From Polyangiales bacterium (GTDB lineage: Bacteria; Myxococcota_A; Polyangia; Polyangiales; JADJQN01): DNA of 64,000 nucleotides. The position numbers and the translations under genes were made by a program. Under the pieces are notes generated by a model. It was not told the DNA's origin, made no database searches, and saw only the letters and a program-made list of their open reading frames with translations. The stretch is from assembly GCA_964202905.1 (NCBI GenBank), contig CAXNJO010000013.1, positions 64,001 through 128,000 on the forward strand. Reading direction: 5' to 3'. Below, piece by piece: positions 38,755-60,277 of the stretch; position 1 is the stretch's first letter; each line of letters starts with the position of its first letter.

Positions 38755-40185
38755 GAGGGTAACCGATCCAAGCCACCTTTGCTGAAACGGCGTTTGCTCC
38801 GGGGTTTGCGAGTCGGCGAGGCAGAGAAGGTCGCGCTGTTCGCGCCGGAGCTGCTGGGGGCAGAACTGGGCGTTTTCCCGCGCGAAAGACAGAGCGGTGC
38901 AGCAGGACGCGCCGAGGAGCGGTCCGTGGAGTCAACGAGGGGTGTGCGGCTGCGGTGGGCTACGCGGCGTAGTCGTCGGCGGGGTCTCGGGCCTTGGCGA
39001 GCGGCGGCGCCTCGGCGGGTCTGCCGAGGTGACGTAGGAAGCGCCGGACTTGAACTTGGTCGCGGAGCACAGCCATGAGGCGCAGGCGACCGTGGCACTT
39101 GGGGCAGTCGAGCACGTCGATATCGTGGCTGCGGCGGAGCAGGTGGGCCCAGCTCGCGGTGGGTCGGGTCATCAGGAGGGCGCCGTCGAGGAGCCTGCGG
39201 AGGTGCTCGTCGGTGAGGATGTACGGTGAGCAGAGCGCGGAGGGTGGAGGCTCGTCCGGCGCCGCGGTGTCGGCGGCGTAGAGCAGGTCGATGTCGCGGA
39301 CATCATCGTCGCTCGGCGCGATGTACGCAGCGGGTGCGATGCCGCCGATGTCGTGCTCGTGATGCGCGCAGCCTGGCGATGGCTCTCCGTCGCGCTCACC
39401 GCACTCAGGCTCGTTCGGTACGCGCGCGGTGATGCGTACGAGCTTCGCGCGGAGCCGACGAGGCTTGGGCACCACGAGCCTTCGCCACGAGTAGCCGGGG
39501 GCGAAGACTCCGTGATAGCGGAGCAGCGGATGGCGCGGACTCGGCACCAGCGCAGCGATGCGCGCCATGAGCTCGGAGCCCGTCATCACGCGATGGGTCC
39601 GAGCGCCGCGGCCGTACTTGGTGCGGTAGCTGTAGCGGCCGTCGGCGAGCTTCTCGAGGCGCTCGAGCGCGATCGCTGGCCTCGCGCAGTAGCGAATCAA
39701 ACGCTCGCGACCGATATCGTCGCCGGCTGCGATGAACACGCGCGCGTCCAAGTCGAAGCCGTCCTCGGTGCAGAAGTGCTTGGAGTGGATGGCCTTGCGC
39801 TCGAAGCGCCGCTCGCCCTCGGTGCTCTGCGACTGCGACTCCGACTCCGAGGGCAGAGCGACGAGCTGCCCGTATTTCAGCGCGAGCTGCTGGCAGCTTC
39901 GTAGGCTGTCGAGCGCGTCGTCTTGCTCGGGCGACGGCTCACGCTCGCCCAGATATCCGTGACGGCGCAGCCAGCGAAGGATGCTCTTGCGCGCGCGCAG
40001 CACGACGCGCTCGACCTCTGCGCGCGTCGGTGGCGGGAGCGGGATGAAGCGAACGCCTCGTTCGGCGGGGACGAACACCCCGTCTGTCGCGACGACGTGT
40101 GGGTGCACGTTGAGGTTGAGCGAGCCGCCGAAATTCTGCACGAACGTGAGCGCTCCCGGCTCGCTGCCGGGCACGCCGCTGCGAT
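38755..40185 (-). mobile_element. IS91/ISCR-like element unit J1: putative oriIS end plus longest transposase fragment
   Basis: Starts GAGGGTAACCGATCCAAGCC; about 205 nt noncoding, then HUH transposase 3' part; right boundary approximate. Confidence 0.88.
38960..40185 (-). pseudogene. IS91/ISCR family rolling-circle transposase, 5'-truncated
   Basis: QNFGGSLNLNVHPH (HUH), ERLIRYCARP (single Tyr as in ISCR), LRYHGVFAP, WAHLLRR, CPKCHG; lacks N-terminal Zn domain. Confidence 0.9.
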
Positions 40186-41329
40186 GCACGAGGCTCGTAC
40201 CCGATCGGCGAGCGCTTCGACGACGAGGGCTACAGCGGCGCGACCATCGAACGCCCCAGCCTGGAGAGGCTCATCGCGCGCATCCAGGACGGCGACATCC
40301 AGCGCGTCATCGTCTACCGGCTCGATCGCCTCACGCGGAAGCTCACCGACTGGGCGTTGCTCGTGCGGGTGTTCGAGCGGTTCAACGTCGGCCTCACGGT
40401 CGTGCACGGCGCCATCGACGCCGAGGCCGGCTCCCTCGCGCGGCTGCAGCTCAACCTGCTCGCGACCTTCGCCGAGCTGGAGCGCGACATGATCGGCGAG
40501 CGTCTGGCCGACGCCCGCGCCACGAAGAAGGCCCGCGGAGAACGCGCCGCAGGTCGCGTGCCTCTTGGCTACGCCGCGGATCCGAAGACGAAGCAGCTCG
40601 TCATCGTCGAGTCGGAGGCGACCGTCGTGCGCTGGTTCTTCACGGAGGCCGGGAGCGGCAAGTCGACCGCCGAGCTTGTCGCGCGAGCGAACGCTCTCCG
40701 GCTCATCGCGAAGAACGGCAAGCGGGGCGAGTGGTCAGCGCGCTCCGTTCTGCGCCTCCTGCAGAACCCCGTGTACGCCGGTCGTCGCCCCGATGGCGCG
40801 GCCGCAGTGCACACCGCGCTCTTGCCTGTGGTCCTCTACGAGCGCGTGCAGGCAGCGATCGTCGCACGCAAGACGAGAGCCACCACGACGCGATCGAAGG
40901 TCGACGAGCGCGACGATCCTTTCCTCCTTCGCGGCCTGCTGGTCTGCGAAGGGTGCGGCCGCACGATGACGACCTCGATGAGCACCGCGCTCACCAAGAA
41001 GACCGCCCCGAAAGCGCCGCGCTACTACCGAGGCCGCACCGACGGCTGCGACGGCGGTCAGATCGCGGCCAGCGCTGTCGAAGGCATGGTCCTCGATGCG
41101 CTTCGCCGGCCCCAGTGGAACTGGCCCGACTCGGCAAAGGAGCGACTCGGCAAAGGAGCGACTCGCGCTGCTCGCCTCGACGTGGGACGTGCTCTGGCCG
41201 CAGAACCGGCGCCGCGCGCTCGCCGACGTGTTCGAGACGATGACGTGGCGTTCGCGAACGAACCGGCTGCTGGTGCGACTCCGCGTGGCGGCGAGCCACC
41301 CCGGCACGGACGAGACCGCCACCGGCTGA
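40186..41329 (+). pseudogene. Large serine recombinase fragment (no catalytic N-terminus, frameshifted)
   Basis: DDEGYSG..IERP, YRLDRLTR, FAELER, PLGY, NPVYAG, LRGLLVCEGCG; 16-bp duplication at 41128-41159. Confidence 0.85.
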
Positions 41330-41464
41330 GGCTCCGGCACCGCGCCGGCGTAGGCCGCAAGGGCCCTGGCGCTCGGGAAGCGGGCGCGCGGTCGATCGCG
41401 CGCAGGCCGTTGCCGGGCTCCTGGACGCGCCGTCACAGCGTCGCGCGTTGACCGCGCACGGATC

Positions 41465-41944
41465 TCAGCCGTGGCTGAACCCATAGACGGCGAGCAGGCC
41501 GTAGGCCACAGCCATGAAGGCGCCTGCGAAGCGCAGCACGCCCAGCGTCGTGCGAACCTGTGACGGAAGGTGCTGCTGCTGGCAGAACTCGGCGCGGCCC
41601 GCGTGGCTCAAGGTGTGATTGAGGGCCACGAAGATCGCGTGCGCTGCGACGCCGCCCGAGAGCACCGACAGCAGCTTCAGGTTACCCGCACTGAAATAGG
41701 TCATCGAGCCCACCAGCACCGCGATACCCAGGCCGAAGCTCGCCTCCATGCGGTGAAAGATCATGCCAATGCTCGTCCAGCGGAGCGTGTCCTCCGACGG
41801 AGAGTTCGCGAGGACGGCCCGCAGCGGATAGCGGAAGAGAAAGCGGAGCGCCCAGTCGTTGAAGGAAAAGAACGCGCCGAACATCACGAGGTAGTTCAGC
41901 GCGAAGAAGTACAAGGCATAGGTGAGGACGGTCTCGAACGGCAT
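41465..41944 (-). CDS. Hypothetical membrane protein
   Basis: MPFETVLTYALYFF..., several hydrophobic helices. Confidence 0.65.
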   Translation of the reverse strand: MPFETVLTYALYFFALNYLVMFGAFFSFNDWALRFLFRYPLRAVLANSPSEDTLRWTSIGMIFHRMEASFGLGIAVLVGSMTYFSAGNLKLLSVLSGGVAAHAIFVALNHTLSHAGRAEFCQQQHLPSQVRTTLGVLRFAGAFMAVAYGLLAVYGFSHG

Positions 41945-42024
41945 GGGTCGTGGCTCCTGGTCTCTTACGTCGCGCGGTGGTTGAGGTGTGCGGTCGCGTG
42001 GTCGTGGGGCCTCGGAGGGCGCGC

Positions 42025-42489
42025 TCAGCTCGCAGCGGTCTTCGGCCCGCGCACGACGCGCTCCTCGAGTCCCCGAAGGACGATGAGGAACAGTCCGCCC
42101 ATCATCCGGGACATCATCGTCTTGCCCATCAACCAGCCGATGGGCCCGAACTTCACCTCGAAGTCCATGCTCATCTTCGCGCACGACCGCCCCGCATCGA
42201 CGGGCTCCTTGCTGAGAGTGGCGATGGCCTTGTTGAGGGGAAGCGAGAACTCCGAGAGCTCGGTCCGGTAGAATCGACCGTCTTGCCAGTCGATGACCTT
42301 CTCGACCATCGAGGTTCCGTCCTGGAGGTGGCAACGCCTGCACGCGCCGACGCCCGCGGTGGCGTCGCTGAGCACGCCCATCTTGCTGCCGCGGGGATGG
42401 AAGTCGTCGATGTGCATGAAGCGCCCGAGGACTGCCCAGACCCGGTCAGCGGACGCCTCGATGTCGATGCTGCGTTCGGTCGTGATCAC
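42025..42489 (-). CDS. SRPBCC / polyketide cyclase-like protein
   Basis: SIDIEASADRVWAVL...HP pattern. Confidence 0.8.
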   Translation of the reverse strand: MITTERSIDIEASADRVWAVLGRFMHIDDFHPRGSKMGVLSDATAGVGACRRCHLQDGTSMVEKVIDWQDGRFYRTELSEFSLPLNKAIATLSKEPVDAGRSCAKMSMDFEVKFGPIGWLMGKTMMSRMMGGLFLIVLRGLEERVVRGPKTAAS

Positions 42490-42513
42490 GTGGACGTGTC
42501 CATGGTTGCCGCG

Positions 42514-42535
42514 AATCTAACCGATCAGTTAGATT
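42514..42535. promoter_or_regulatory. Putative TetR operator
   Basis: Near-perfect palindrome AATCTAACCGATCAGTTAGATT between divergent SRPBCC and TetR genes. Confidence 0.65.
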
Positions 42536-42599
42536 GGCGTCAAGCGGGCCGACATCGACGTCGGGCGTGTAAGGTCCAGTCAGGAACGAGAGGAACCGC

Positions 42600-43202
42600 G
42601 TGGGACGAAAGAAGGGCTACGAACCAGGAGACCTCGTCGAATCCGCGATGGCGCTGTTCCACGCGCACGGCTTCGCCGGCACCTCGACGCAGATGCTGGT
42701 GGAGAAGCTCGGCGTGAACCGCAACAGCATGTACGCGGAGTTCGGCAGCAAGCAGGCGCTCTTCGACGCGGCTCTGCGGCGGTACGAGCAGCAGTTCATG
42801 AACGACGTCTTCGGCCAGCTCGAAGCCGCCGACGCTGGCCTCGACTCGATCGCCGCGCTGTTCGAGCGCTTCGGCAAGGATGCCGCGGGCCCCGCCTCGG
42901 GACTTGGCTGCCTCCTCTGCAATACGGCGGTAGAGCTCGCGGGCGACGATTCCAGCGGGGAACCCTTCGTCCAGCGATACTTCGGGCGCGTTCAGGCCGC
43001 CTTCCAGAATGCCTTGGCCAACGCCCGACGAGCGGGAGACCTCCAGCTTGGCGTCGTGGCCGTGGACGAAGCGCGTTTCCTGACGGCAACCGCCCTGGGC
43101 ATCTTCGTCATGGTGCGTGCGCGCACGGCGCCCATCGTCGTACAAGGCTCGGCTCGGGTGGTGAAGCGCCATCTCGACGGCCTGCGGGCCAAGAAACCGT
43201 GA
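42600..43202 (+). CDS. TetR/AcrR family regulator
   Basis: MGRKK...AMALFHAHGFAGTS...SMYAEFGSKQALF; GCL..NT. Confidence 0.92.
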   Translation: MGRKKGYEPGDLVESAMALFHAHGFAGTSTQMLVEKLGVNRNSMYAEFGSKQALFDAALRRYEQQFMNDVFGQLEAADAGLDSIAALFERFGKDAAGPASGLGCLLCNTAVELAGDDSSGEPFVQRYFGRVQAAFQNALANARRAGDLQLGVVAVDEARFLTATALGIFVMVRARTAPIVVQGSARVVKRHLDGLRAKKP

Positions 43203-43333
43203 GAGGGCGACGGGCAGGTGAGTCGGCCCGGCCAGCGTGCGAGGCGCGGTCACGAGGTTGGGCGCGGCGTGATCGGCAGCAGCGCGCTGGCCAGTTAAAC
43301 GTCAGCGGCTCCGTCCCAGAAAAACGGGCTCCG

Positions 43334-43341
43334 GAGGGTAA
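43334..43341 (-). mobile_element. Element end J2 (8-nt remnant GAGGGTAA, cut by ISAzo13)
   Basis: Same octamer and same ISAzo13 insertion point as at 55527-55534. Confidence 0.6.
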
Positions 43342-44634
43342 GGCGGCTGATCACAACAAGTTGATCAAGTTCATCGGGGTCGGATCTCATAGTTCCATTC
43401 GCCGTGGAAGTTGTTCCTGTGAAGAGCCACCTGATTCATTTCGGCCTTCGTGATGACGATCCCGGTGGGATAGCGGCCCTTGTCGAGCTTGGCTTTGACG
43501 CGGAGTCCGGCAGACGTTCGCGTGTGACCGATGAGCTCGACTACCGTTTCGAAGGTGCGCAGCGGCTTCCCGCGCCAGTTCTGCGTGATGTGGCAGAAGA
43601 GGCGGTGTTCGATCTTGTTCCACTTGCTGGTGCCCGGAGGAAAGTGGGAGACACAAACACGGACGCCGAACTCGCTGGCGAAGTTCTGCAGCTCGAACTT
43701 CCATGCGCGAAGCCGATAGCCGTTGCTGCCGCCCGCATCGGCGGTGATGAAGATCTCGTGTGCATCGGGATACGCGCGCAGGCCCATCGTTCTCCACCAC
43801 TGGCGGATCGATGCGACGGCAAACGCCGGCGTGTCGTGGTCGCGGCCGACGCTGACGTACGCCTCATTGCGCGCCATGTCGTAGACGCCGTAGGGGATGG
43901 CTTTGCCCAGCGCGTCGTCAGGGAAGTCGTGCACCAGCACCTTCTCCGGCGTGCCCTGAGGCTGCCACTCCTTTCCCGCGTTCTTGAAGTCGCCGACGAG
44001 TTCCTTCTTCTTCGTGTCCACGGAGATCACCGGCTGTCGCCGCCCGAGGAAGTTCTCGGCCGTGGCGTTGATGTGCTCGAACTGAGCATTGCGATCGGGA
44101 TGCACCGCGCCCTCGGTGCTTTTGCGCGCCGACTGGAGGCTGTAGCCAAGCTCGTGCAGCAAGCGACCCACTGTCGTGGAGCTCACCCTCCAGCCACCCT
44201 TCACCATCGCGGCGGCGAGCTGTGCGCGGCTCTTGCACGTCCAGCGAAGTGGCGACATCGGGTCGCCGCGCGTCAACGGATCTACCAACGCTTCGAGTGC
44301 CGCCTTGAGCCCCGGCTGGATCTGCTCGAGTCGCGGACGCCCGCCGCCAGGGCCACGCACTCGTCCAGTCAGTGCGACCCCCAACTCCAATTCCCGACGG
44401 CCATTGCGAATCGTCTGCCTCGCAAGGCCAGTCGCTGCCGACACCAAGGCATCGCCACCGTACCCGATCGCCCGAGACTCCGAAGCCGCCCAGAGACGCC
44501 GGGCCCGCTCGTCGAACAACCCGCTGACCGCCACGTACTTGGCCACGATGGTCTCTTCGATCGCTGTGTTGCGGCGCATCTCCACCTTAGATCACCACTC
44601 GCTCAAGATGGCAAGCTAGATCTGGCCGGGTTCC
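43342..44634 (-). mobile_element. ISAzo13 family IS, copy 1 (1293 bp)
   Basis: Inverted copy of 55535-56827; GG termini. Confidence 0.92.
43371..44585 (-). CDS. ISAzo13 family DDE transposase
   Basis: TRGDPMSPLRWT, HPDRNAQF, ISVDTKKKE, DAGGSNG, PPGTSKWNKIEHRLF, GEWNY. Confidence 0.95.
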   Translation of the reverse strand: MEMRRNTAIEETIVAKYVAVSGLFDERARRLWAASESRAIGYGGDALVSAATGLARQTIRNGRRELELGVALTGRVRGPGGGRPRLEQIQPGLKAALEALVDPLTRGDPMSPLRWTCKSRAQLAAAMVKGGWRVSSTTVGRLLHELGYSLQSARKSTEGAVHPDRNAQFEHINATAENFLGRRQPVISVDTKKKELVGDFKNAGKEWQPQGTPEKVLVHDFPDDALGKAIPYGVYDMARNEAYVSVGRDHDTPAFAVASIRQWWRTMGLRAYPDAHEIFITADAGGSNGYRLRAWKFELQNFASEFGVRVCVSHFPPGTSKWNKIEHRLFCHITQNWRGKPLRTFETVVELIGHTRTSAGLRVKAKLDKGRYPTGIVITKAEMNQVALHRNNFHGEWNYEIRPR

Positions 44635-44741
44635 TTAGAGTCACGCAAGACCCTTCCACGGACAGAATGGACCGTCCAGACGAGGCTTACCGAACCTCGG
44701 CGCGGCACAACGTTTGGAGCTCGTGCCCCGACTCGGCCGGG

Positions 44742-45005
44742 CTACCCCGTCGTCTTCTGGGCTTCGTCGGAATGGGTTGTTTCCGCAGGGGGGAACAAGT
44801 GACTCATTGGAACCTTGTAGGCAAGAGCAGTTGCAACCAAGGAAGCAATGGTCACGTTTGTCTTGCCGTTCTCGACACGCTGTAAACTGGTCCAGTGGAT
44901 GCCGATGAGCTCGGCTGCTGCTTCACGCGACAGACCCCGAGCCTTGCGAAGCTCACGAAGACGAGCTGCCAGGCCGCGCCCGCTCTCGCTCGATCGCAGC
45001 AACAA
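44742..45005 (-). CDS. XRE family helix-turn-helix regulator
   Basis: RLRELRKARGLSREAAAELIGIHWTSLQRVENGKTN; TTG start inferred. Confidence 0.8.
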   Translation of the reverse strand: MLLRSSESGRGLAARLRELRKARGLSREAAAELIGIHWTSLQRVENGKTNVTIASLVATALAYKVPMSHLFPPAETTHSDEAQKTTG

Positions 45006-45054
45006 CCTCGGGACGCTCCCAGACCTCTGAACGGTCGTGATCGTTGGGGGGCGT

Positions 45055-45989
45055 GAGGGTAACCGATCCAAGCCACCTTTGCTGAAACGGCGTTTGCTCC
45101 GGGGTTTGCGAGTCGGCGAGGCAGAGAAGGTCGCGCTGTTCGCGCCGGAGCTGCTGGGGGCAGAACTGGGCGTTTTCCCGCGCGAAAGACAGAGCGGTGC
45201 AGCAGGACGCGCCGAGGAGCGGTCCGTGGAGTCAACGAGGGGTGTGCGGCTGCGGTGGGCTACGCGGCGTAGTCGTCGGCGGGGTCTCGGGCCTTGGCGA
45301 GCGGCGGCGCCTCGGCGGGTCTGCCGAGGTGACGTAGGAAGCGCCGGACTTGAACTTGGTCGCGGAGCACAGCCATGAGGCGCAGGCGACCGTGGCACTT
45401 GGGGCAGTCGAGCACGTCGATATCGTGGCTGCGGCGGAGCAGGTGGGCCCAGCTCGCGGTGGGTCGGGTCATCAGGAGGGCGCCGTCGAGGAGCCTGCGG
45501 AGGTGCTCGTCGGTGAGGATGTACGGTGAGCAGAGCGCGGAGGGTGGAGGCTCGTCCGGCGCCGCGGTGTCGGCGGCGTAGAGCAGGTCGATGTCGCGGA
45601 CATCATCGTCGCTCGGCGCGATGTACGCAGCGGGTGCGATGCCGCCGATGTCGTGCTCGTGATGCGCGCAGCCTGGCGATGGCTCTCCGTCGCGCTCACC
45701 GCACTCAGGCTCGTTCGGTACGCGCGCGGTGATGCGTACGAGCTTCGCGCGGAGCCGACGAGGCTTGGGCACCACGAGCCTTCGCCACGAGTGGCCGGGG
45801 GCGAAGACTCCGTGATAGCGGAGCAGCGGATGGCGCGGACTCGGCACCAGCGCAGCGATGCGCGCCATGAGCTCGGAGCCCGTCATCACGCGATGGGTCC
45901 GAGCGCCGCGGCCGTACTTGGTGCGGTAGCTGTAGCGGCCGTCGGCGAGCTTCTCGAGGCGCTCGAGCGCGATCGCTGGCCTCGCGCAG
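45055..45989 (-). mobile_element. IS91/ISCR-like unit J3: end plus transposase 3' fragment
   Basis: Near-identical to 38755-39689; breaks after CTCGCGCAG. Confidence 0.92.
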
Positions 45990-45993
45990 GCGG

Positions 45994-46554
45994 ATGAGTC
46001 AGACTCTGAGAAGCCGTCCACCGGGCACCATGAAGCTGACAAAGCTCCAAGACTATCTGCGATGCGAGCGTCAGGTTCACGTCGCACTGCGTTCCAGTCC
46101 GAAGTCAGTCGGCGCAGCCCCCATCGACGATGTCACGGTGTCCGTGTCGGACGATGGAATCATGAGAATCGCGGATGGGCGCTCAGGACGAAACTCGTTT
46201 CGAGTGTTTTTTGCGGGGCGCGTCGAGGACATCGATGGAATCCCAACATTTGTGGGACACTCTGCAATCGCACCGGAGGTAGATTGGATACAGTGGTTGT
46301 TCGCCGTGCCCTTCGTTCTTGCAACGATCGCGATTGTCTTCGCGCGTGCGACGGGCGAATCGGAAAGCGACCATTCCCCGCTGTGGACTTGGGTTGTCTA
46401 CGCCGGACTTGGAGTGGTTCCCATTCTCGTGCGAGTGGCCGCTTGGATAGCTTCGTCAGAAAGCCACGAATACGTCGTGAGCGCTTTGCCAGCGCTGCTT
46501 CGCAAGCAGCTGTTCGCGGCCGGGAGGGTAACCGATCCAAGCCACCTTTGCTGA
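45994..46554 (+). CDS. Hypothetical 2-TM protein, lower GC, stop supplied by the next element end
   Basis: 186-aa ORF with two hydrophobic helices; last codons RVTDPSHLC come from J4. Confidence 0.6.
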   Translation: MSQTLRSRPPGTMKLTKLQDYLRCERQVHVALRSSPKSVGAAPIDDVTVSVSDDGIMRIADGRSGRNSFRVFFAGRVEDIDGIPTFVGHSAIAPEVDWIQWLFAVPFVLATIAIVFARATGESESDHSPLWTWVVYAGLGVVPILVRVAAWIASSESHEYVVSALPALLRKQLFAAGRVTDPSHLC

Positions 46555-46783
46555 AACGGCGTTTGCTCCGGGGTTTGCGAGTCGGCGAGGCAGAGAAGGT
46601 CGCGCTGTTCGCGCCGGAGCTGCTGGGGGCAGAACTGGGCGTTTTCCCGCGCGAAAGACAGAGCGGTGCAGCAGGACGCGCCGAGGAGCGGTCCGTGGAG
46701 TCAACGAGGGGTGTGCGGCTGCGGTGGGCTACGCGGCGTAGTCGTCGGCGGGGTCTCGGGCCTTGGCGAGCGGCGGCGCCTCG
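46524..46783 (-). mobile_element. IS91/ISCR-like unit J4: end plus about 55 nt of transposase
   Basis: Matches the first 260 nt of J1. Confidence 0.92.
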
Positions 46784-47547
46784 CCGGGCTCGCCGAACAG
46801 GGCGGGGTCATCGGTGCGCTTCCGTCCCTGCGCGTGCAGCAGCTCGTGCCGGTCAACGAGCGTGAAGCGGTGACGTCGATGCTCGCCGGCCTTGAGCGCG
46901 CCGCGGTCGAACACGTTGCTGTACACCGCTCGCGCTCGCGGCGGAGGCTCGGCGCGGTGGGCTGGCTGGCGCGAGGCCGCAGCTCGTGTGGTCGCAGTTC
47001 GACATCCCTGGAGCGCCGAGCACCGCGGCCGTCGCTCGACGTCTCTTCGGCGAGGCCGAGCACACCGTGGTGCTGTGCCACGTACTCGATCGGCCACTGG
47101 GCGGACGGCGATGAGCCCCCGCAGAACCCCGTCCTCGTCCCTCTCGCCGAGCGCATGGAGGCGGTGCCCGCCCTGAAGGTCCGCCTCTTCTTGAACGTTG
47201 CCCGCCGCAAGGCGCTCGAGGGCGCCCCGTCCACCGAGGTCGTGCAGGACTTCCGCCGGCGTTTCCTCACGTACGTCTGGCCGGCTGGCGCTCGCCTCCC
47301 GGCGATCTACTACGACCCGCGCAGCCTCGAGCGCAGCGACGCCGTGCTCCACGCCAAGTGCATCGTCGTCGACGATGCGAAGGCGCTCATCACGTCGGCC
47401 AACCTTGCGGAAGCCGCGCAGGAGAACATCGAGGCCGGCGTGCTGCTCGAGGACCCCGTGTTCGCGAAGGCGCTGCGACAGCAGTTCGACTCGCTGATCG
47501 ACGCCGGGTTGGTGCGCCTGCTGCCCGACCTGCGGGGCTCCACGTGA
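46784..47547 (+). pseudogene. drmC: DISARM DrmC-like phospholipase D domain protein, 5'-truncated and frameshifted
   Basis: QLVWS...TAAVARRLFGEAE (alternate frame), YYDPRS, LHAKCIVVD...ITSANL...NIEAG (HKD motif). Confidence 0.7.
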
Positions 47548-52167: not shown

Positions 52168-53280
52168 CTACGCGCCCTCGCCCTCTGGCGGGGCACCAGA
52201 GGCCAGCGGCGCGAAGAGATCCATCAGCTGCACGAGGCGCTTCCGGACAGCAGCCACCACCGCGGGCTTCTCCTCACCGACGGGGACATCGATTGCGACA
52301 GCCGGGAAGTCCATCCAGCCGCTCGCCAGTTGGCATCCCTGGGCCTCGAGAGGCCGCGCGATGGACCATGCGATTTCCCGCCTGCTCACGAAGTCCGAAC
52401 CGCGGGAGCCGTGATGAGGGTCGTACCAGATCGGGAAGGAACCCGACTGCACCCATCGGTTGACATCCAAGCGCAGCGATCCGCTCCAGCCTCGCTCCGT
52501 CTTGCAGTACCGGAGGTAGTAGCCCTTGCCCGCGGTGAGCCGCGTTCCCTTCTGGAGCAGGAGCCGGTCCGCCACCAGCTGCTCGATGACGGCGTCGACC
52601 AGATCCGAGAACTCGAGGACGCGCCGGTAGACTGGCGACGAGAGCTCCGACCGGGTGACGGGGAGGAACGCCTCGGTGTCCATCCGCTCGCAGAGCCCGT
52701 CGAGCTGGGCGAGGTCGGCGACGCGGTCACGCTCCCCGGTGGCCTCAAGCTCGGCCCGAACGCTCGCGAGGAGCCGACGCCAGGAGATCAGGACGAGTTC
52801 GGGCCCACCGGAGGCGCCCCCGACCCAGAGCCCGGGCTCCGCCGCGCGAGGGTCGCGCAGTGTGTGACCCACGGCCGCGCAACGCTCGCGCAGCTCGCGC
52901 CAGAGGACATCGCCACGAATCTCAGGTGCGACGAACGCGAGGAGACCGCCAACGGCGAGCCGGCCAAGGTAGGTCGCTGGTTGGTTGTCCGTGAGCGCCG
53001 CCCAGAACTTGGCCTCGACGACGACGCGCTCTGAACCGGCCACGTCGATGCCGACGAGGTCCGGACGCTCGCCGTCCTTCCCCGTGCTCTGGGATACGAA
53101 CCGAAGCTCAGGGAGCTCGACCGCCGCGGGTCGGAACGCCGCCGCGAAACCCCGGCGCGCCGCTGGCGAGACGCTGAGGAGGAACAGCAACGCTTCGGTA
53201 GCCAGGTTCTCGGGCGACTCAGCAAACCGCAGCGCGAGGTGCCCGAAGAGGGTCGTCGTGCCCGCAGCAGGTACCGTCAT
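52168..53280 (-). CDS. PD-(D/E)XK nuclease family protein
   Basis: ENLATEAL, RPDL...VVVEAKFWA..TDNQP..Y. Confidence 0.75.
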   Translation of the reverse strand: MTVPAAGTTTLFGHLALRFAESPENLATEALLFLLSVSPAARRGFAAAFRPAAVELPELRFVSQSTGKDGERPDLVGIDVAGSERVVVEAKFWAALTDNQPATYLGRLAVGGLLAFVAPEIRGDVLWRELRERCAAVGHTLRDPRAAEPGLWVGGASGGPELVLISWRRLLASVRAELEATGERDRVADLAQLDGLCERMDTEAFLPVTRSELSSPVYRRVLEFSDLVDAVIEQLVADRLLLQKGTRLTAGKGYYLRYCKTERGWSGSLRLDVNRWVQSGSFPIWYDPHHGSRGSDFVSRREIAWSIARPLEAQGCQLASGWMDFPAVAIDVPVGEEKPAVVAAVRKRLVQLMDLFAPLASGAPPEGEGA

Positions 53281-53417
53281 GATCCAATCCTATGCGATCG
53301 GCCGCGTACCGTGAGGACGCATGCGCACGACGGGACGAGGGCGCGCAAGAACCGCCCACGCTCCTCCTATCAGGAGGGTGAGGCGGACCCGCCTCGTTCA
53401 CCCCAAGGAGGTTCCAC

Positions 53418-53744
53418 ATGACCGCAGCAGCCCAGGCCGCGGAGCGCACCGCTCCGTCCATCACCCCGTCGTCCCCGCTTCGCCCTCGCCGAGACCAGCA
53501 CGAGCGCTGGATCGCGCACACCCACCCGATCGACTTCGAGGAAGCCGCCCAGCTCGTGCTCGACGCCCACGCCGAGGACGGCGTGCGTGACGACGTTGTC
53601 GCCCACGACGTCCGGACCTGGGCCTTCGGCAACGCCGAGGGCTCGATGGCCATCGCGCCGGTCCCGCTCCCCGGCCGTGAGCCGATGCAGCCGATGCCGC
53701 TGCGGGAGCTCGCGTTCTCGCAGCTCTGCCAGCGCAGAGGGTAA
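53418..53744 (+). pseudogene. N-terminal fragment of a DUF932-like mobile-element protein, cut at J5
   Basis: AAGGAGG RBS; ends LRELAFSQLCQR at the junction, stop inside the element end. Confidence 0.5.
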
Positions 53745-54685
53745 CCGATCCAAGCCACCTTTGCTGAAACGGCGTTTGCTCCGGGGTTTGCGAGTCGGCG
53801 AGGCAGAGAAGGTCGCGCTGTTCGCGCCGGAGCTGCTGGGGGCAGAACTGGGCGTTTTCCCGCGCGAAAGACAGAGCGGTGCAGCAGGACGCGCCGAGGA
53901 GCGGTCCGCGGAGTCAACGAGGGGTGTGCGGCTGCGGTGGGCTACGCGGCGTAGTCGTCGGCGGGGTCTCGGGCCTTGGCGAGCGGCGGCGCCTCGGCGG
54001 GTCTGCCGAGGTGACGTAGGAAGCGCCGGACTTGAACTTGGTCGCGGAGCACAGCCATGAGGCGCAGGCGACCGTGGCACTTGGGGCAGTCGAGCACGTC
54101 GATATCGTGGCTGCGGCGGAGCAGGTGGGCCCAGCTCGCGGTGGGTCGGGTCATCAGGAGGGCGCCGTCGAGGAGCCTGCGGAGGTGCTCGTCGGTGAGG
54201 ATGTACGGTGAGCAGAGCGCGGAGGGTGGAGGCTCGTCCGGCGCCGCGGTGTCGGCGGCGTAGAGCAGGTCGATGTCGCGGACATCATCGTCGCTCGGCG
54301 CGATGTACGCAGCGGGTGCGATGCCGCCGATGTCGTGCTCGTGATGCGCGCAGCCTGGCGATGGCTCTCCGTCGCGCTCACCGCACTCAGGCTCGTTCGG
54401 TACGCGCGCGGTGATGCGTACGAGCTTCGCGCGGAGCCGACGAGGCTTGGGCACCACGAGCCTTCGCCACGAGTGGCCGGGGGCGAAGACTCCGTGATAG
54501 CGGAGCAGCGGATGGCGCGGACTCGGCACCAGCGCAGCGATGCGCGCCATGAGCTCGGAGCCCGTCATCACGCGATGGGTCCGAGCGCCGCGGCCGTACT
54601 TGGTGCGGTAGCTGTAGCGGCCGTCGGCGAGCTTCTCGAGGCACTCGAGCGCGATCGCTGGCCTCGCGCAGTAGCGAATCAAACG
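53737..54685 (-). mobile_element. IS91/ISCR-like unit J5: end plus transposase 3' fragment
   Basis: Near-identical to 38755-39703. Confidence 0.92.
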
Positions 54686-54812
54686 GAAAGGCTGTCCACG
54701 CGGTCGAAGGATTCACGCCCCCCGACGCCTCGCAACGCAGGCGCCTCGCGCGGTGAGCCGGCGCGCTCGATTGCAGGATGTGCGACGCGGTCGATGTGGC
54801 TACTATGCGGCG

Positions 54813-55271
54813 ATGCTCACCAGCCGGTACTTCGGATCGATCGCCGCCGACCACGCGAAGACGCAGATCGCGCGCGGCGACGCGCAGCTACGCGTGGACA
54901 TCAACCTCGCAGATCCGTCGGCATGTACCCAGGCGGCGATCGATGCCGTCGATCGCGCGATCGACGAGCTCGATTCTCGCGAGGCCGCCGCACGTGCGGC
55001 GATCACTGCGGTGATGGGCGATGACGAGCGACAGCCGGCGCAGTTCTGGCAGTTCTATCGCGACGAAGTCGACGGATTCGGCGACCTCGCACGGGACGCC
55101 TTCGTCTCGACTCTGGTGCTCGTCCGGGTCGGCTTCTACCCCGACGAAGTGTCCGACACCGCATCGCACATCGTGCTTGATTTTGCGGTCCGTGGGCCCA
55201 ACACGGATCAGCTCCTCGTGGCGAAGTTCCACGCCGACGGCTCGCTCGGGGAGATTGCCTGGGAGAGCTGA
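54813..55271 (+). CDS. DUF2004-like protein
   Basis: YFG N-terminus, VGFYP...LDF...TDQLLV...IAWES C-terminus. Confidence 0.6.
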   Translation: MLTSRYFGSIAADHAKTQIARGDAQLRVDINLADPSACTQAAIDAVDRAIDELDSREAAARAAITAVMGDDERQPAQFWQFYRDEVDGFGDLARDAFVSTLVLVRVGFYPDEVSDTASHIVLDFAVRGPNTDQLLVAKFHADGSLGEIAWES

Positions 55272-55300
55272 CTCGGTCCTCTGTAGGCGTCAACCGACCT

Positions 55301-55526
55301 TCAGTCGTCGGTCTGCAGAAGAGTGCGCATCTGGGCGAGCACCCCCGGGATTCCTAGGAGCGGAGCCCACACCCACCACCAGAATTGCGAGACGAGCATG
55401 CAGACGGCGGACGCACCAAGGCCGATCAACAGCGCCGAACCCACCCACCGTGCGATGGACTTCTGAGTTCGCGGTTGACCATAGAACTCTACCCCCTTGA
55501 GCACTACCGGCGCGCCGAGGAATAGA
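55301..55526 (-). pseudogene. 3' fragment of a membrane protein gene cut at J6
   Basis: Frame open from the junction (SLFLGAPVVLKGVEF...) with two hydrophobic stretches. Confidence 0.45.
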
Positions 55527-55534
55527 GAGGGTAA

Positions 55535-56827
55535 GGAACCCGGCCAGATCTAGCTTGCCATCTTGAGCGAGTGGTGATCTAAGGTGGAGATGCGCCGCAA
55601 CACAGCGATCGAAGAGACCATCGTGGCCAAGTACGTGGCGGTCAGCGGGTTGTTCGACGAGCGGGCCCGGCGTCTCTGGGCGGCTTCGGAGTCTCGGGCG
55701 ATCGGGTACGGTGGCGATGCCTTGGTGTCGGCAGCGACTGGCCTTGCGAGGCAGACGATTCGCAATGGCCGTCGGGAATTGGAGTTGGGGGTCGCACTGA
55801 CTGGACGAGTGCGTGGCCCTGGCGGCGGGCGTCCGCGACTCGAGCAGATCCAGCCGGGGCTCAAGGCGGCACTCGAAGCGTTGGTAGATCCGTTGACGCG
55901 CGGCGACCCGATGTCGCCACTTCGCTGGACGTGCAAGAGCCGCGCACAGCTCGCCGCCGCGATGGTGAAGGGTGGCTGGAGGGTGAGCTCCACGACAGTG
56001 GGTCGCTTGCTGCACGAGCTTGGCTACAGCCTCCAGTCGGCGCGCAAAAGCACCGAGGGCGCGGTGCATCCCGATCGCAATGCTCAGTTCGAGCACATCA
56101 ACGCCACGGCCGAGAACTTCCTCGGGCGGCGACAGCCGGTGATCTCCGTGGACACGAAGAAGAAGGAACTCGTCGGCGACTTCAAGAACGCGGGAAAGGA
56201 GTGGCAGCCTCAGGGCACGCCGGAGAAGGTGCTGGTGCACGACTTCCCTGACGACGCGCTGGGCAAAGCCATCCCCTACGGCGTCTACGACATGGCGCGC
56301 AATGAGGCGTACGTCAGCGTCGGCCGCGACCACGACACGCCGGCGTTTGCCGTCGCATCGATCCGCCAGTGGTGGAGAACGATGGGCCTGCGCGCGTATC
56401 CCGATGCACACGAGATCTTCATCACCGCCGATGCGGGCGGCAGCAACGGCTATCGGCTTCGCGCATGGAAGTTCGAGCTGCAGAACTTCGCCAGCGAGTT
56501 CGGCGTCCGTGTTTGTGTCTCCCACTTTCCTCCGGGCACCAGCAAGTGGAACAAGATCGAACACCGCCTCTTCTGCCACATCACGCAGAACTGGCGCGGG
56601 AAGCCGCTGCGCACCTTCGAAACGGTAGTCGAGCTCATCGGTCACACGCGAACGTCTGCCGGACTCCGCGTCAAAGCCAAGCTCGACAAGGGCCGCTATC
56701 CCACCGGGATCGTCATCACGAAGGCCGAAATGAATCAGGTGGCTCTTCACAGGAACAACTTCCACGGCGAATGGAACTATGAGATCCGACCCCGATGAAC
56801 TTGATCAACTTGTTGTGATCAGCCGCC
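55535..56827 (+). mobile_element. ISAzo13 family IS, copy 2, with TAA target duplication
   Basis: Flanked by TAA at 55532-55534 and 56828-56830. Confidence 0.93.
55584..56798 (+). CDS. ISAzo13 family DDE transposase
   Basis: Same 404-aa translation as 43371-44585. Confidence 0.95.
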   Translation: MEMRRNTAIEETIVAKYVAVSGLFDERARRLWAASESRAIGYGGDALVSAATGLARQTIRNGRRELELGVALTGRVRGPGGGRPRLEQIQPGLKAALEALVDPLTRGDPMSPLRWTCKSRAQLAAAMVKGGWRVSSTTVGRLLHELGYSLQSARKSTEGAVHPDRNAQFEHINATAENFLGRRQPVISVDTKKKELVGDFKNAGKEWQPQGTPEKVLVHDFPDDALGKAIPYGVYDMARNEAYVSVGRDHDTPAFAVASIRQWWRTMGLRAYPDAHEIFITADAGGSNGYRLRAWKFELQNFASEFGVRVCVSHFPPGTSKWNKIEHRLFCHITQNWRGKPLRTFETVVELIGHTRTSAGLRVKAKLDKGRYPTGIVITKAEMNQVALHRNNFHGEWNYEIRPR

Positions 56828-57786
56828 TAACCGATCCAAGCCACCTTTGCTGAAACGGCGTTTGCTCCGGGGTTTGCGAGTCGGCGAGGCAGAGAAGGTC
56901 GCGCTGTTCGCGCCGGAGCTGCTGGGGGCAGAACTGGGCGTTTTCCCGCGCGAAAGACAGAGCGGTGCAGCAGGACGCGCCGAGGAGCGGTCCGTGGAGT
57001 CAACGAGGGGTGTGCGGCTGCGGTGGGCTACGCGGCGTAGTCGTCGGCGGGGTCTCGGGCCTTGGCGAGCGGCGGCGCCTCGGCGGGTCTGCCGAGGTGA
57101 CGTAGGAAGCGCCGGACTTGAACTTGGTCGCGGAGCACAGCCATGAGGCGCAGGCGACCGTGGCACTTGGGGCAGTCGAGCACGTCGATATCGTGGCTGC
57201 GGCGGAGCAGGTGGGCCCAGCTCGCGGTGGGTCGGGTCATCAGGAGGGCGCCGTCGAGGAGCCTGCGGAGGTGCTCGTCGGTGAGGATGTACGGTGAGCA
57301 GAGCGCGGAGGGTGGAGGCTCGTCGGGCGCCGCGGTGTCGGCGGCGTAGAGCAGGTCGATGTCGCGGACATCATCGTCGCTCGGCGCGATGTACGCAGCG
57401 GGTGCGATGCCGCCGATGTCGTGCTCGTGATGCGCGCAGCCTGGCGATGGCTCTCCGTCGCGCTCACCGCACTCAGGCTCGTTCGGTACGCGCGCGGTGA
57501 TGCGTACGAGCTTCGCGCGGAGCCGACGAGGCTTGGGCACCACGAGCCTTCGCCACGAGTGGCCGGGGGCGAAGACTCCGTGATAGCGGAGCAGCGGATG
57601 GCGCGGACTCGGCACCAGCGCAGCGATGCGCGCCATGAGCTCGGAGCCCGTCATCACGCGATGGGTCCGAGCGCCGCGGCCGTACTTGGTGCGGTAGCTG
57701 TAGCGGCCGTCGGCGAGCTTCTCGAGGCACTCGAGCGCGATCGCTGGCCTCGCGCAGCCATCTTCGTGGTCCGGTCAGAGCGCCCG

Positions 57787-57806
57787 ATGTGCTACGAGTA
57801 GCACAT
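57787..57806. promoter_or_regulatory. Putative TA operator
   Basis: Perfect inverted repeat ATGTGCTAC-GA-GTAGCACAT overlapping the antitoxin start. Confidence 0.7.
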
Positions 57807-58080
57807 GAAGTCAGTCGGCGTGCGGGAGCTGCGGCAGCGGGCGAGTGAACTGCTCCGGCGGGTCGAGGCGGGCGAGTCGATCGAGGTGACGGATCGAGGG
57901 CGGGCGGTCGCGGTGCTCGCGCCGCTCGCGACTCGTTCCGCGCTCGAGCGTCTGCGCGCAGCGGGTGAGACCAGCGGCAAGAGCCGAGGCATGGCGGGGA
58001 TCGGTAAGCCGCTCGACGTCGCGCCGGGGCAAGAGTCGGCGTCGAGCGTCCTCGCGCGTCTGCGCAAGAGCGAGCGCTGA
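57805..58080 (+). CDS. Phd/YefM family antitoxin
   Basis: VGVRELRQRASELLRRVEAGESIEVTDRGRAVA. Confidence 0.92.
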   Translation: MKSVGVRELRQRASELLRRVEAGESIEVTDRGRAVAVLAPLATRSALERLRAAGETSGKSRGMAGIGKPLDVAPGQESASSVLARLRKSER

Positions 58081-58081
58081 G

Positions 58082-58471
58082 TTGGCGCTCGCGTATCTGG
58101 ACTCGTCCGCGCTGGTGAAGCTGGCGGTGCGTGAGCCGGAATCGGCGGCGCTCGTCCGCTTTCTGCGGGGCAAGACCGAGCTGGTGTCGAGCGCGCTCGC
58201 GCGGACCGAGGTCGCGCGAGCGCTGCTGCCGCTCGGCGCGGCGGCCTCAGCGCGTGGTCGCGAAGTGCTCGATCGCGTCGAGCTCGTCCGCGTGAACGAC
58301 CGTGTGCTCGCGCTCGCCGGCACGCTCTTGCCGCTCGAGCTGCGCTCGCTCGACGCGATCCATCTCGCCACCGCCGAGCTCGTCGGCCGCGTGCGCGTCA
58401 TCGTGACCTACGACGAGCGGATGGCCGCAGCGGCACGCGCGATGAAGTGGAAGGTGGCGGCTCCGGCGTAG
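58082..58471 (+). CDS. vapC: PIN-domain toxin
   Basis: YLDSSALVKL, TEV, LRSLDAIHLATA, TYDER. Confidence 0.92.
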   Translation: MALAYLDSSALVKLAVREPESAALVRFLRGKTELVSSALARTEVARALLPLGAAASARGREVLDRVELVRVNDRVLALAGTLLPLELRSLDAIHLATAELVGRVRVIVTYDERMAAAARAMKWKVAAPA

Positions 58472-58604
58472 GTTGGGAAGGCATCGCGCAGACCGTCGCG
58501 CGTCGCGGGCTGCGCGTGTGCAAGCTGACGCCGCGGGGAAACCGCCGCGGATGACCCAATACGCACGCCGCCGCGGATCGCCCCGTGAGCGCGCCGCTTG
58601 GGGA

Positions 58605-59066
58605 TCACTCTCGGCAGTACGTCTCGATGGTGCCGCGGATGCGCACCAGCTGCGCCTGCACCTCGTCGAACCGGCGTCGCAGCGCGTCGGGATACGCGGT
58701 CCAGGACTCGTCGCCCTCCGGCGTCTCCACGTAGATGTTTGGGCAGACCGGCATCTCCGGGGGGATGGTACCGAGCACGCTCGTCGTGGCGTCGACGAGC
58801 GCGCTTGCGCTGCGAACCTGCGCCTTGCATTGCGCAACGAGGAGGCGGGGGACGGGGTCGCGGTGGGCGAAGAGCTGCCGCACTTGTTCACGCCGCTCCA
58901 CCTCATCGCGATACTCCTGCAAGATTTGGGCGTCCGGGGTGTTCTTGAGTAGTTCCGGGAACGCCTCGCGAAACACCGCGCACGCGCCGTGACGCGCGTC
59001 GTCGCGGCCGCCGCCGCAGCCACCGAGGAGAACGAGGAGACACAAGATCATGCTGGTCCGTTTCAT
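58605..59066 (-). CDS. Hypothetical lipoprotein
   Basis: MKRTSMILCLLVLLGGC lipobox. Confidence 0.65.
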   Translation of the reverse strand: MKRTSMILCLLVLLGGCGGGRDDARHGACAVFREAFPELLKNTPDAQILQEYRDEVERREQVRQLFAHRDPVPRLLVAQCKAQVRSASALVDATTSVLGTIPPEMPVCPNIYVETPEGDESWTAYPDALRRRFDEVQAQLVRIRGTIETYCRE

Positions 59067-59215
59067 CGCCGGCCTCCGACGTGCAGGCGTAGCGTACATT
59101 CATCGTTGCCGTCGAGTCTCGCGCGCGACACCAGTCCGCGCACAACCCTCGATCGCCTCGCGCGCTCGACACCGCCGGGTGGTGAATAGCAAGCCCGAGC
59201 ACGCGTCCGACCGCC

Positions 59216-59848
59216 GTGTCCCCGACTGCCACTCTGCTCTGCGCGTATGTCATCCTCGCGTTCTCGATGCCTGCGGCGGCGCAATCGCTGCGGCCGTGGC
59301 AGGAGCGCCCCGAGCGGCGCGAGCTTCGCTATCGCGAGCAGCGCGCCTTTCGCTCCGTGTCGATCGGCCGCTCTGGTCTCTTCGAGATCGGAGATGCCTG
59401 CCGGTCCACCTTTGACGGGGCGGAGCGGGAACAGCTCTGCGTCGCGACGGTCGTCGCGGCTCGCGTGCGCTACTCCCCGGCGCCGCTCATCCGCGCGTGC
59501 GCAAGCGCCTTCTCCGGCGACGACGCCGAGATGGCCTGCGTCCAGACCGCGCTCGTCTCCCACGCCGAGCCCTCCGCGAGCGTCGCCGCCTGCGATCGCG
59601 CGTTCGTCGGTGACGAGAACGCGCTCCGCTGCATCGAGCGCGTCGCCGCCACCGCCTCCCGTGGTGGGGCCGTCGGCATCGAAGCGATCATCGCATGCGA
59701 CCGCGCGTTCTCTGGCGACGACAACGCCCTCGCATGCCTCGAAGCGCTGCCGTGCGGGCCGTACGATCCCGCAGAGTTCGTCGCCTACTGCGACCAGCAG
59801 AGCGCGGGCGACCTCGCCGCGCTGAGCTGCCTGCAGAGCTTTCGCTGA
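59216..59848 (+). CDS. Secreted Cys-repeat protein
   Basis: Signal peptide; repeats ACxxAFxGD.xxxxC. Confidence 0.65.
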   Translation: MSPTATLLCAYVILAFSMPAAAQSLRPWQERPERRELRYREQRAFRSVSIGRSGLFEIGDACRSTFDGAEREQLCVATVVAARVRYSPAPLIRACASAFSGDDAEMACVQTALVSHAEPSASVAACDRAFVGDENALRCIERVAATASRGGAVGIEAIIACDRAFSGDDNALACLEALPCGPYDPAEFVAYCDQQSAGDLAALSCLQSFR

Positions 59849-59890
59849 CGCGTTCGGAGCGGGGTACGGCGACACACGACGCCGCCGCCA

Positions 59891-60229
59891 TCACCGCCCA
59901 GTCTGTACCTCGTTGTCGAGCACGCGGACGCCGCGCGCGCGCTTGGCCTCTTCCGTGGCCGCGCGCAGCTTCTCGTAGAGCGCCATCACGTCGGTCTTGA
60001 GGCCTTCGATGCGCACATCGGGAGTCGAGCGGTCCATCGCCGTGAGCACGATGTTGCCAGTCCCCGCGAGGCGCTGCGCGAACGGGCGCTCGACGACGAA
60101 GTCGTTGATTCGATAGATGTCGATCTGATCCATGCGCTTCGAGAAGAGGCCCGTCTCGACCACCACGCGCTGCGTGGTGAGCCGGTACTTCACGCTGCGC
60201 GCGCGGAACCAGTAGTAGATGAAGCCGCA
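59891..60229 (-). pseudogene. Bacterial PH (bPH_2) domain protein, 5'-truncated at J7
   Basis: YRLTTQRVVVETGLFS...QRLAGTGNI; frame open to the junction. Confidence 0.75.
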
Positions 60230-60271
60230 GAGGGTAACCGATCCAAGCCACCTTTGCTGAAACGGCGTTTG
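60230..60271 (-). mobile_element. Element end J7 (42 nt, cut by IS21)
   Basis: GAGGGTAACCGATCCAAGCCACCTTTGCTGAAACGGCGTTTG. Confidence 0.9.
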
Positions 60272-60277
60272 TGCCAG

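Follow-up and report, generated by a model that had tools for sequence, protein, structure and literature searches.

The window, a stretch of 64,000 nucleotides from a Polyangiales bacterium (genome G000), carries a 27-kb block that was inserted into a locus which three relatives also conserve. The block is bordered by two copies of the 3' end of a conserved gene (gene X) found downstream of hisS, which are 91.4% identical (36176..36670 against 63107-63604). A comparison of this locus across relatives had been proposed in an earlier note made from the letters of this DNA. In the relatives G001, G002 and G004 gene X directly adjoins the DNA found after 63604, both outer flanks match this empty site, and the DNA at 36671..38754 is missing from it. 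Between the borders lie the origin (ori) ends of a transposon, here labelled E1 to E6 with one further remnant, and the intervening DNA, here called cargo:

36176..36670, + strand: left copy of the gene X 3' end, a 495-bp duplication and the left island border
36671..38754, - strand: island DNA left of E1, with a TIGR03790-family MYXO-CTERM gene (36705-38474) and an ORF that reaches E1 without a start
38755..40192, - strand: E1, ori end with the longest transposase fragment (aa 163-568 of the 574-aa relative P0001; the zinc-binding N-terminus is absent)
40192..43333: cargo 1, a 5'-truncated large serine recombinase, a membrane protein, a polyketide-cyclase-like protein, TetR and a 51-nt end motif
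43334..43341, - strand: remnant ori end of 8 nt, followed by ISAzo13 copy A
43342..44634, - strand: ISAzo13 copy A, opposite in orientation to copy B, flanks TAA/TTA
44635..45054, - strand: cargo 1b, an XRE-type helix-turn-helix gene
45055..45989, - strand: E2, ori end with transposase fragment, ending at offset 935
45989..46523, + strand: cargo 2, an ORF without a family match; lake contigs diverge from the window exactly at 45989
46524..46783, - strand: E3, ori end with 55 nt from the 3' end of the transposase gene, its junction placed to within about 15 nt
46784..53736: cargo 3, a DrmC-like phospholipase D piece, a glycosyltransferase/radical SAM operon with frameshifts, unknown ORFs and a 3'-truncated DUF932-family gene
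53737..54685, - strand: E4, ori end with transposase fragment, ending at offset 949
54685..55526, + strand: cargo 4, an ORF without a family match
55527..57757, - strand: E5, ori end split after 8 nt by ISAzo13 copy B, resuming at 56828 and ending at offset 935 like E2
55535-56827, + strand: ISAzo13 copy B, complete, with a TAA duplication
57757..60229: cargo 5, a Phd/PIN toxin-antitoxin pair, two unknown ORFs and a 5'-truncated bPH_2 gene
60230..60271, - strand: E6, the first 42 nt of the ori end, cut by IS21
60272..63102: IS21 (istA on the + strand), truncated by a complete IS3-family element (61821-63102)
63107..63604, + strand: right copy of the gene X 3' end, running on into the native locus

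The earlier note had described seven ends in one orientation, and exact matches to GAGGGTAA bear this out: they occur at 38755, 43334, 45055, 46524, 53737, 55527 and 60230, all on the + strand and none on the - strand. The background expectation is 0.02 per 21.5 kb on one strand, and the whole genome holds 18 matches. Five ends (E1, E2, E3, E4 and E5) continue, as claimed, through a 205-nt noncoding stretch into a 5'-truncated HUH transposase gene (Y2_Tnp), and the sizes given for the intervening segments (about 3.1, 0.4, 0.5, 7.0, 0.8 and 2.5 kb) agree with ours. The junction form needs one amendment, for ISAzo13, which had gone unnamed, shaped two of the seven ends (43334 and 55527); IS21 sits in a third (60230). 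Six origin ends are certain and the 8-nt remnant at 43334 is weaker. It is taken as a real end for two reasons: similarity to a paralogue on contig C2 of the same genome breaks off exactly at 43333, and a lake contig terminates at this point, its final 5 letters being different. The unequal flanks of ISAzo13 copy A suggest a later adjacent deletion. The flank pattern does not agree with an inversion between the two ISAzo13 copies, and that reading was rejected.

The ori edge is fixed. Every copy starts with the same first base, 205 nt beyond the stop codon, against seven different flanks; sibling subfamilies in the same genome align at the identical base, and a contig from run X1 has a different flank at exactly 38755. 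The copies are 99.7-100% identical (1-3 substitutions per ~935 nt) and are confined to this one locus of the assembly. One substitution, SNP 907, separates E1/E2 from E4/E5, and E2 and E5 share an end point. Runs X5-X16 share few words with the window and were left aside in naming a habitat; contigs from X5 show many differences from it.

The proposed assignment of these ends to the IS91/ISCR type holds, with a Y2_Tnp transposase and a fixed oriIS downstream of it. The transposase fragment matches PF04986 above the cut-off (E 1e-19). Full-length relatives contain PF14319 and PF04986 only, save one fusion with PF01609, and no helicase domain. The best NCBIfam model is ISCR clade Ia, which scores below its curated cut-off for the fragment and for P0001 alike. 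As far as is known, ISCR enzymes have a single tyrosine. One invariant tyrosine is present here (Y328 of P0001), with an arginine four residues earlier, rather than the two active-site tyrosines described for IS91 proper (IS91, IS801 and IS1294; PMC4778049). The oriIS has no terminal inverted repeats and creates no target duplication. IS91, IS801 and IS1294 are reported to have a tetranucleotide target beside oriIS (CTTG, GTTC and GTCC; PMC13181058); the four bases before the seven window ends (TCGT, TCCG, GCGT, CCGG, CGCA, TAGA and CGCA) include no conserved tetranucleotide. In a look for subterminal palindromes of the oriIS, its first 100 nt fold no better than shuffled sequences (z 0.31 in the window, 0.13 in G002), and no significant hairpin was found at the ori, at three truncation points or at two G002 sites (best z -1.66). 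No sigma-70-type promoter or terminator was found in 38600-40300, and an outward promoter is therefore unsupported.

The window had been said to lack a complete transposase. This is so, and it extends to the whole assembly (19 contigs, 94.5% complete), where a search for the full-length element, suggested as a check, located no cognate copy. A full-length parent appears instead among lake metagenome contigs, seen as 30-nt loose ends, one of which, at 40192 in run X2, shows the full-length continuation. A single-sequence search of genome contigs for relatives of the element gave 48 pattern matches, none of which was confirmed, and the exact 20-nt ori pattern had no match in metagenome contigs.

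The DNA between the ends is unrelated from segment to segment and often broken mid-gene at the junctions. At E1, E4 and E6 a gene is cut on one side with no continuation on the other, and the flanks of E2 are also non-contiguous: one lake contig extends 1034 nt beyond the left edge of cargo 2 into DNA unlike the window stretch. The claim of unrelated segments, as opposed to one ancestral region with simple insertions, is upheld by these cases. Paralogues in the same genome were found for only three of the six inter-end segments (83-95%). In cargo 1 the recombinase is 95% identical to C2:515571-516640 and the end motif 90% to C2:519256-519307; in cargo 3 the DUF932-family gene, interrupted at E4, is 93% identical to C6:225812-225438; and in cargo 5 the bPH_2 gene, severed at E6, is 83% identical to C2:419645-419340 and 78% to G001. 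Relatives of the window pieces are scattered over C2 (two loci), C6 and C13, and no exact donor was found in this genome (best 83-95%). We also searched 301 genomes of the order with 45990-53736 (cargo 2 to 3), taking the best two candidates per genome. Matches came from 30 genomes, only to the glycosyltransferase/radical SAM operon, the DUF932-family piece and the element, and among these candidates none spanned E3 or linked cargo 2 with cargo 3.

Exact donors were found in a sister array. The same-family genome G002 carries an equivalent array of 150-163-nt origin minis, with 33 ori-mini matches in co-oriented clusters, one opposite copy on its contig C1 and apparent solo copies. Four of the 16 intervals between minis reproduce remote segments of its contigs C1, C3 and C15 at 98-100% identity and end exactly at mini junctions. 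Two of the four donors lie inside intact pstA and nuoD, and no mini seed was found in the fetched donor regions of the four. For the other 12 intervals no exact donor was present among the 40 candidates scored per search, in searches that did not take in C1:345000-364999, C4:35001-55000 and C12. Of 18 junctions, 13 have G as the 5' base of the cargo in a place that the long element fills with C or A, and the remaining five are compatible with the same rule; the 3' ends of the minis vary (150-163 nt) while this base stays G. At the window junctions the element itself would continue with G, so that they are uninformative on this rule. The G002 array shows real capture from remote loci.

Similar layouts occur elsewhere. 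Among 40 surveyed loci of at least 15 kb, 16 have an extra ori-side copy (21 copies in the same orientation, 2 opposite) and five a ter-side copy (6 same, 0 opposite). In G061 one 5.2-kb unit stands at two sites 590 kb apart with an identical cargo-to-ori junction, and 6 of the 29 element matches in the regions examined include opposite ori. A donor search for the inter-element DNA of G061 returned nothing besides repeats and the duplicated unit.

On balance we lean towards the view that the window holds a train of ori ends of one IS91/ISCR-type transposon, built unit by unit through terminator-less rolling-circle transposition that returns to resident ori copies. A full-length element elsewhere would supply the transposase, and an early stop of copying from the ori would leave ori-plus-fragment minis inserted before G, a step shown for IS801. 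In the next round, as shown for IS91, IS801 and IS1294, copying would read through 0.2-7 kb of neighbouring DNA, because the mini has no terminator, and join the cargo end to the ori. The unit may then be integrated where an ori copy already sits, either through homologous recombination or because the transposase attacks that ori, and such entry would give head-to-tail, co-oriented units. The fixed ori edge, the ragged far edge, the truncated cargo bounded by junctions and the exact remote donors in G002 are all observed. Precedents are described for minis (PMC3189936), for circles and read-through (PMC13181058) and for a circle followed by recombination (PMC7707992). Against this account, exact donors are lacking for all of the window cargo, for 12 of the 16 G002 intervals and for the inter-element DNA of G061; no circle appeared among the assembled contigs; the two steps predict a mini at the donor site, which is present at none of the four G002 donors; opposite-orientation copies exist (G002 C1, G061); and most IS801 fragments are judged to be products of rearrangements in PMC3189936. 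A single crossover in gene X probably brought in the 27-kb array as one circle, and the ISAzo13, IS21 and IS3 insertions would have followed its arrival. Mobilisation of the array now would need a transposase from outside the assembled genome.

An unlikely alternative, to our reading, is that independent insertions struck a dispensable island, in one direction through strand bias, and that deletions through direct repeats or mediated by IS left the segments as leftovers. IS801 deletions through recombination between copies and one-ended transposition are described (PMC6354349), the region was struck by ISAzo13, IS21 and IS3, most of the window cargo is accessory DNA without a donor, and, from recombinase to end motif, cargo 1 follows the order of a single C2 element. 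However, this history fails to account for the G002 copies of pstA, nuoD and two further remote segments, which are exact and end at the junctions, and both the scatter of relatives and the 301-genome result at E3 weigh against it.

We regard it as quite unlikely that ISCR-type ori ends form a self-targeting acquisition locus, at which the transposase directly copies G-starting fragments of intact remote genes or incoming DNA and adds them to a growing array, each with a fresh ori repeat. Such addition would resemble that of CRISPR spacers, with no integrase and no donor insertion, and would provide bacteria with a widespread equivalent of fragment capture by Helitrons. A related reading is direct or coupled capture, in which the transposase bound at an array ori nicks a distant chromosomal site before G, a fresh mini is joined to that strand and the piece is sealed to the old ori; this would double the repeat and add a spacer-like fragment while leaving no stable insertion at the donor. 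This we hold to be quite doubtful. The four exact donors are intact and element-free, mini 3' ends vary while the cargo begins with G, and the element is restricted to one locus in G000, all of which favour such capture. Yet no biochemical precedent was found in the literature searched, the two-step scheme would in any case lose donor insertions that are lethal, the split at SNP 907 set against the common end point of E2 and E5 misfits simple copying from the right-hand neighbour, and G002 has apparent solo copies. Misassembly through the 0.3-1.4-kb repeat is very improbable. No short-read contig of other samples spans the array, and only one contig runs across 38755, sharing 30 nt with the element; but the copies differ in length and diagnostic substitutions, the outer flanks on either side agree with the empty site, breaks in lake contigs fall on the same junctions and other genomes share the layout.

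Unit-by-unit growth at resident ori ends, the account we favour, has relatives among known systems. IS801 minis likewise keep the ori end, have recurring stops inside the transposase gene, work with transposase in trans and can drag neighbouring DNA (PMC3189936, PMC6354349). Those minis end and insert at tetranucleotides such as GAAC and CAAG, whereas the ends studied here conserve no tetranucleotide and have G as the first base on the cargo side; the IS801 fragments described are dispersed, and ours form head-to-tail trains with different cargo. In the Toleman model of ISCR1 complex class 1 integrons a circle with captured DNA enters by homologous recombination to give tandem co-oriented units (PMC7707992). 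That model involves a complete element, homology in the integron 3' segment and a cargo of selected resistance genes that is often repeated. Our array has no integron; its homology would lie in the ori fragment itself, and each cargo is different and mostly broken. The ISCR28 "sandwich" (remnant oriIS, gene, ISCR28) also has a gene between sequential oriIS copies, one a remnant (PMC12772301), but holds one gene between two ends as against 6-10 consecutive units of arbitrary fragments.

The earlier note had likened the array to integrons or to Helitrons. On the account we favour, the process resembles capture by Helitrons and ISCR1. Helitrons are HUH rolling-circle elements in which truncation and read-through make new ends and move host gene fragments (PMC4778049); they are eukaryotic, with a RepHel protein with helicase and a hairpin terminator, whereas our scan of the window revealed no helicase domain, and each fragment is preceded by its own copy of the origin. 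Integrons share variable DNA between repeats in a tandem array, but here the repeats are transposon ends and cargo boundaries disregard gene boundaries, with cuts inside genes rather than whole-gene cassettes. No tyrosine integrase was found among 31 ORFs scanned with Pfam, the sole recombinase being the 5'-truncated serine recombinase of cargo 1. The integron likeness is dropped because the cargo consists of random fragments, not gene cassettes.

The ingredients of the mechanism are known; the self-stacking fragment archive would be a new form of them. Evidence for transduction of chromosomal genes by IS91/ISCR elements was called circumstantial in 2016 (PMC4778049), and only four family members are listed as shown to transpose (PMC13181058). 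In G002 donor and product can be compared within a single genome; the borders are exact to the base and the pieces bear no sign of usefulness, which makes the capture step directly testable. It is likely that ori ends pick up random DNA and likely that they stack the pieces at one place. If they also serve as landing sites, this would explain one-direction ISCR remnants in variable islands and show a way for such elements to pile up genes for resistance or defence with no integron involved. The window likely shows the last stage, in which a completed array has been transferred as one block to a new chromosome. Were the acquisition-locus reading true, the system would archive and reshuffle DNA.

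The window contains seven instances of the octamer GAGGGTAA, on the + strand only, exactly where the earlier note had placed seven same-direction junctions (38755, 43334, 45055, 46524, 53737, 55527 and 60230). Eleven more matches are dispersed across the 5.68-Mb assembly, and 0.02 are expected in the array stretch; the feature is real. Comparison of the window with itself resolves one element in six copies, five of them long (260-1438 nt) and the sixth only 42 nt, with 1-3 substitutions per ~935 nt. The rest of the assembly is without a further copy. The element ORF lies on the - strand and encodes an HUH transposase (Y2_Tnp), with its stop 205 nt from the fixed edge, in agreement with the noncoding end of about 205 nt leading into a 5'-truncated transposase described earlier. 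On alignment evidence, the true ori edge is the first G of the octamer, because the ends of two other IS91-like subfamilies in the assembly align there base for base and a contig of lake metagenome run X1 carries another flank at 38755 (202 differing letters to its left).

Three ends have been altered by later insertions.

Insertions in the ori ends
55535-56827: complete ISAzo13 in the ori at 55527 after 8 nt; TAA duplicated, ori resuming at 56828
43342-44634: second ISAzo13, same ori position as at 55527, opposite direction; remainder of that ori element absent
60230, after 42 nt of ori: IS21, itself interrupted by an IS3 element

The end at 43334 is an 8-nt remnant because ISAzo13 lies after 8 nt and the rest of the element is missing. 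Its identity as a seventh ori end is supported by a paralogue on contig C2 and a lake contig, both of which diverge from the window at 43333; the unequal flanks of this ISAzo13 suggest an adjacent deletion. The assembly has no ISAzo13 copies other than these two, and both occupy the same ori TAA, one in each direction; this suggests that the site is favoured as a target.

The transposase fragment at 38755 corresponds to residues 163-568 of a full-length relative (P0001, 574 aa, 82% identical), and those at 45055, 53737 and 55527 to about residues 325-568. The named relatives are Myxococcales or Polyangiaceae proteins, which would fit a myxobacterial host. Within the IS91 family, broadly taken, the element resembles the ISCR branch: it has a single catalytic Tyr, no tetranucleotide target was found at the seven ends, and the best profile is ISCR clade Ia, with a score below the cut-off. 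No cognate full-length transposase gene is present in the assembly, and the other subfamilies there, two open frames of 520 codons (C6, C15) among them, are only 30-48% identical. In contigs of lake runs X1 and X2 the element extends beyond 40192, and by comparison with P0001 the loose end in X2 appears to be the missing N-terminal part. These continuations indicate that a parent element exists in a related population. Depth in the lake contigs is greater for the element than for most cargo.

Cargo genes for which a longer relative is available are cut at the junctions. At 38755 a serine recombinase is missing its 5' part (95% to a longer C2 relative), at 53737 a DUF932-family gene its 3' part (93% to a C6 relative) and at 60230 a bPH_2 gene its 5' part (83% to C2, 78% to genome G001). 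Comparison with the longer relatives found no continuation of these three genes on the far side of the element, as would be seen had the cargo once been contiguous around IS insertions. The match of an X1 contig to cargo 2 covers 46208 to 45989, beyond which the contig has 1034 more letters unlike the window, so this cargo exists element-free elsewhere with the same edge. In the assembly, paralogues were found for three of the six inter-end segments and an exact copy for none; the fragments were therefore probably derived from related strains or species. About 2 kb past the serine recombinase gene lies a 51-nt motif (43283-43333) that is found again in genome G003 and downstream of the C2 paralogue; it may mark the end of a serine-recombinase element. 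A glycosyltransferase / radical SAM-SPASM / WG-repeat operon (48519-51600) is frameshifted in the window; 22 further genomes in the order carry it, ~70% conserved. Other cargo includes a DrmC-like phospholipase D piece (46786-47547) and a Phd/PIN toxin-antitoxin pair (57805-58471); the latter could stabilise the island.

The locus was compared across relatives, as had been proposed, and is island-free in G001, G002 and G004, where hisS and gene X, the conserved gene at the island border, are joined directly to DNA equivalent to that after 63604. In the window's genome the last 495 bp around the gene X end are present twice, 91% identical, with a 27-kb insert between the copies. If a circle bearing a foreign gene X fragment had joined the chromosome by a single crossover, this arrangement would result; after outgroup comparison both copies remain candidates for the native one. 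A short tandem repeat in gene X (34879-35064) encodes a GDADAT-rich linker.

The decisive evidence for remote capture, at the level of sequence, comes from G002, of the same family. A 160-nt ori mini (ori end plus short element fragment) from a related element matches this genome 33 times, and some of the matches are halves separated by an ISNCY insertion. The matches form clusters on C16, C17, C4, C5 and C1, and all but one, on C1, point the same way. Sixteen inter-mini intervals were compared with the G002 genome; four of them reproduce remote segments at 98-100% identity.

Remote donors of G002 intervals
C16:29309-30499: donor on C1
C16:44694-45915: donor on C15
205-nt piece: donor on C3
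454-nt piece: donor on C15

Each copy begins at a mini end and ends at the next ori. Two correspond to interior stretches of pstA and nuoD, genes that are themselves intact, and one takes in the start of an ABC-F gene. No mini seed was found in the fetched donor regions. For the other 12 intervals no exact donor was found among the best 40 candidates per search; some have 77-88% paralogues, a few terminating at the junction. With contig overlaps removed, 18 distinct mini-to-cargo junctions are left: 13 show G in place of the C or A of the long element, and at the remaining five a G would fit once 1-2 shared bases are passed. The same units stand in differing order on C5 and C16, through either shuffling at minis or an assembly effect. 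At several loci (C1, C2, C3, C5, C16) ISNCY is nested at position 88-93 of the mini, as if the two had moved as one unit. A second repeat family on C4, C12 and C16 (100-151 nt, ~17 copies, mixed orientation) matches one IS110 end and is a possible IS110-end array; one 2.9-kb segment (77% paralogue on C15) terminates at such a repeat.

The array layout is reproduced by a scheme, somewhat more likely than not, in which a mini would insert, capture neighbouring DNA by read-through and enter at a resident ori. This would give a fixed ori edge, a ragged far edge, a single direction and differing cargo. Published accounts report ori-bearing minis from 26% of IS801 events, with neighbouring DNA sometimes carried (PMC3189936), single-stranded IS91 circles with a terminator often read through (PMC13181058), and ISCR1 units thought to enter as circles via homologous recombination (PMC7707992). 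Independent insertions and deletions are a doubtful source for the window alone; IS801 produces such deletions (PMC6354349), but the exact G002 copies are left unexplained. The main difficulty for the three-step scheme is the four donors without a mini, which call either for an insertion since lost from the donor or for capture in a sibling cell, or else for a coupled reaction by which no mini is ever left at the donor. Such a reaction agrees with these donors and is still more doubtful. Misassembly of the array is very unlikely; none of the lake contigs checked crosses the whole of it.

Alignment identified 80 loci, of which 40 with at least 15 kb of sequence were used. An extra ori-side copy lies nearby in 16 (21 same, 2 opposite orientation) and an extra ter-side copy in 5 (6 same, 0 opposite), in rows that are interdependent, some coming from one genome and several apparently being the same element. 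In two more places the window's genome has IS91-like ends of other subfamilies clustered in one orientation, four at C3:295000-306500 and three at C17:5400-29200. The contig ends C17:1-5936 and C18:2-5937 match in reverse orientation at 99.98% identity and probably reflect an overlap in the assembly. In another genome, G061, G follows many truncated element copies, several copies are inverted, and one 5.2-kb unit occurs at two sites 590 kb apart; a search with the remaining inter-element DNA found no donor.

The main idea of the earlier note is largely right. Its comparison with integrons is the exception, as the array is not one; the capture mode resembles that of ISCR1 and ISCR28 and the fragment transduction of Helitrons. 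Full-text searches, which covered few subscription papers, found no description of trains of ori minis with exact copies of housekeeping-gene fragments. Each chemical step has a precedent; what is new is an organised, self-stacking array with demonstrable remote donors.
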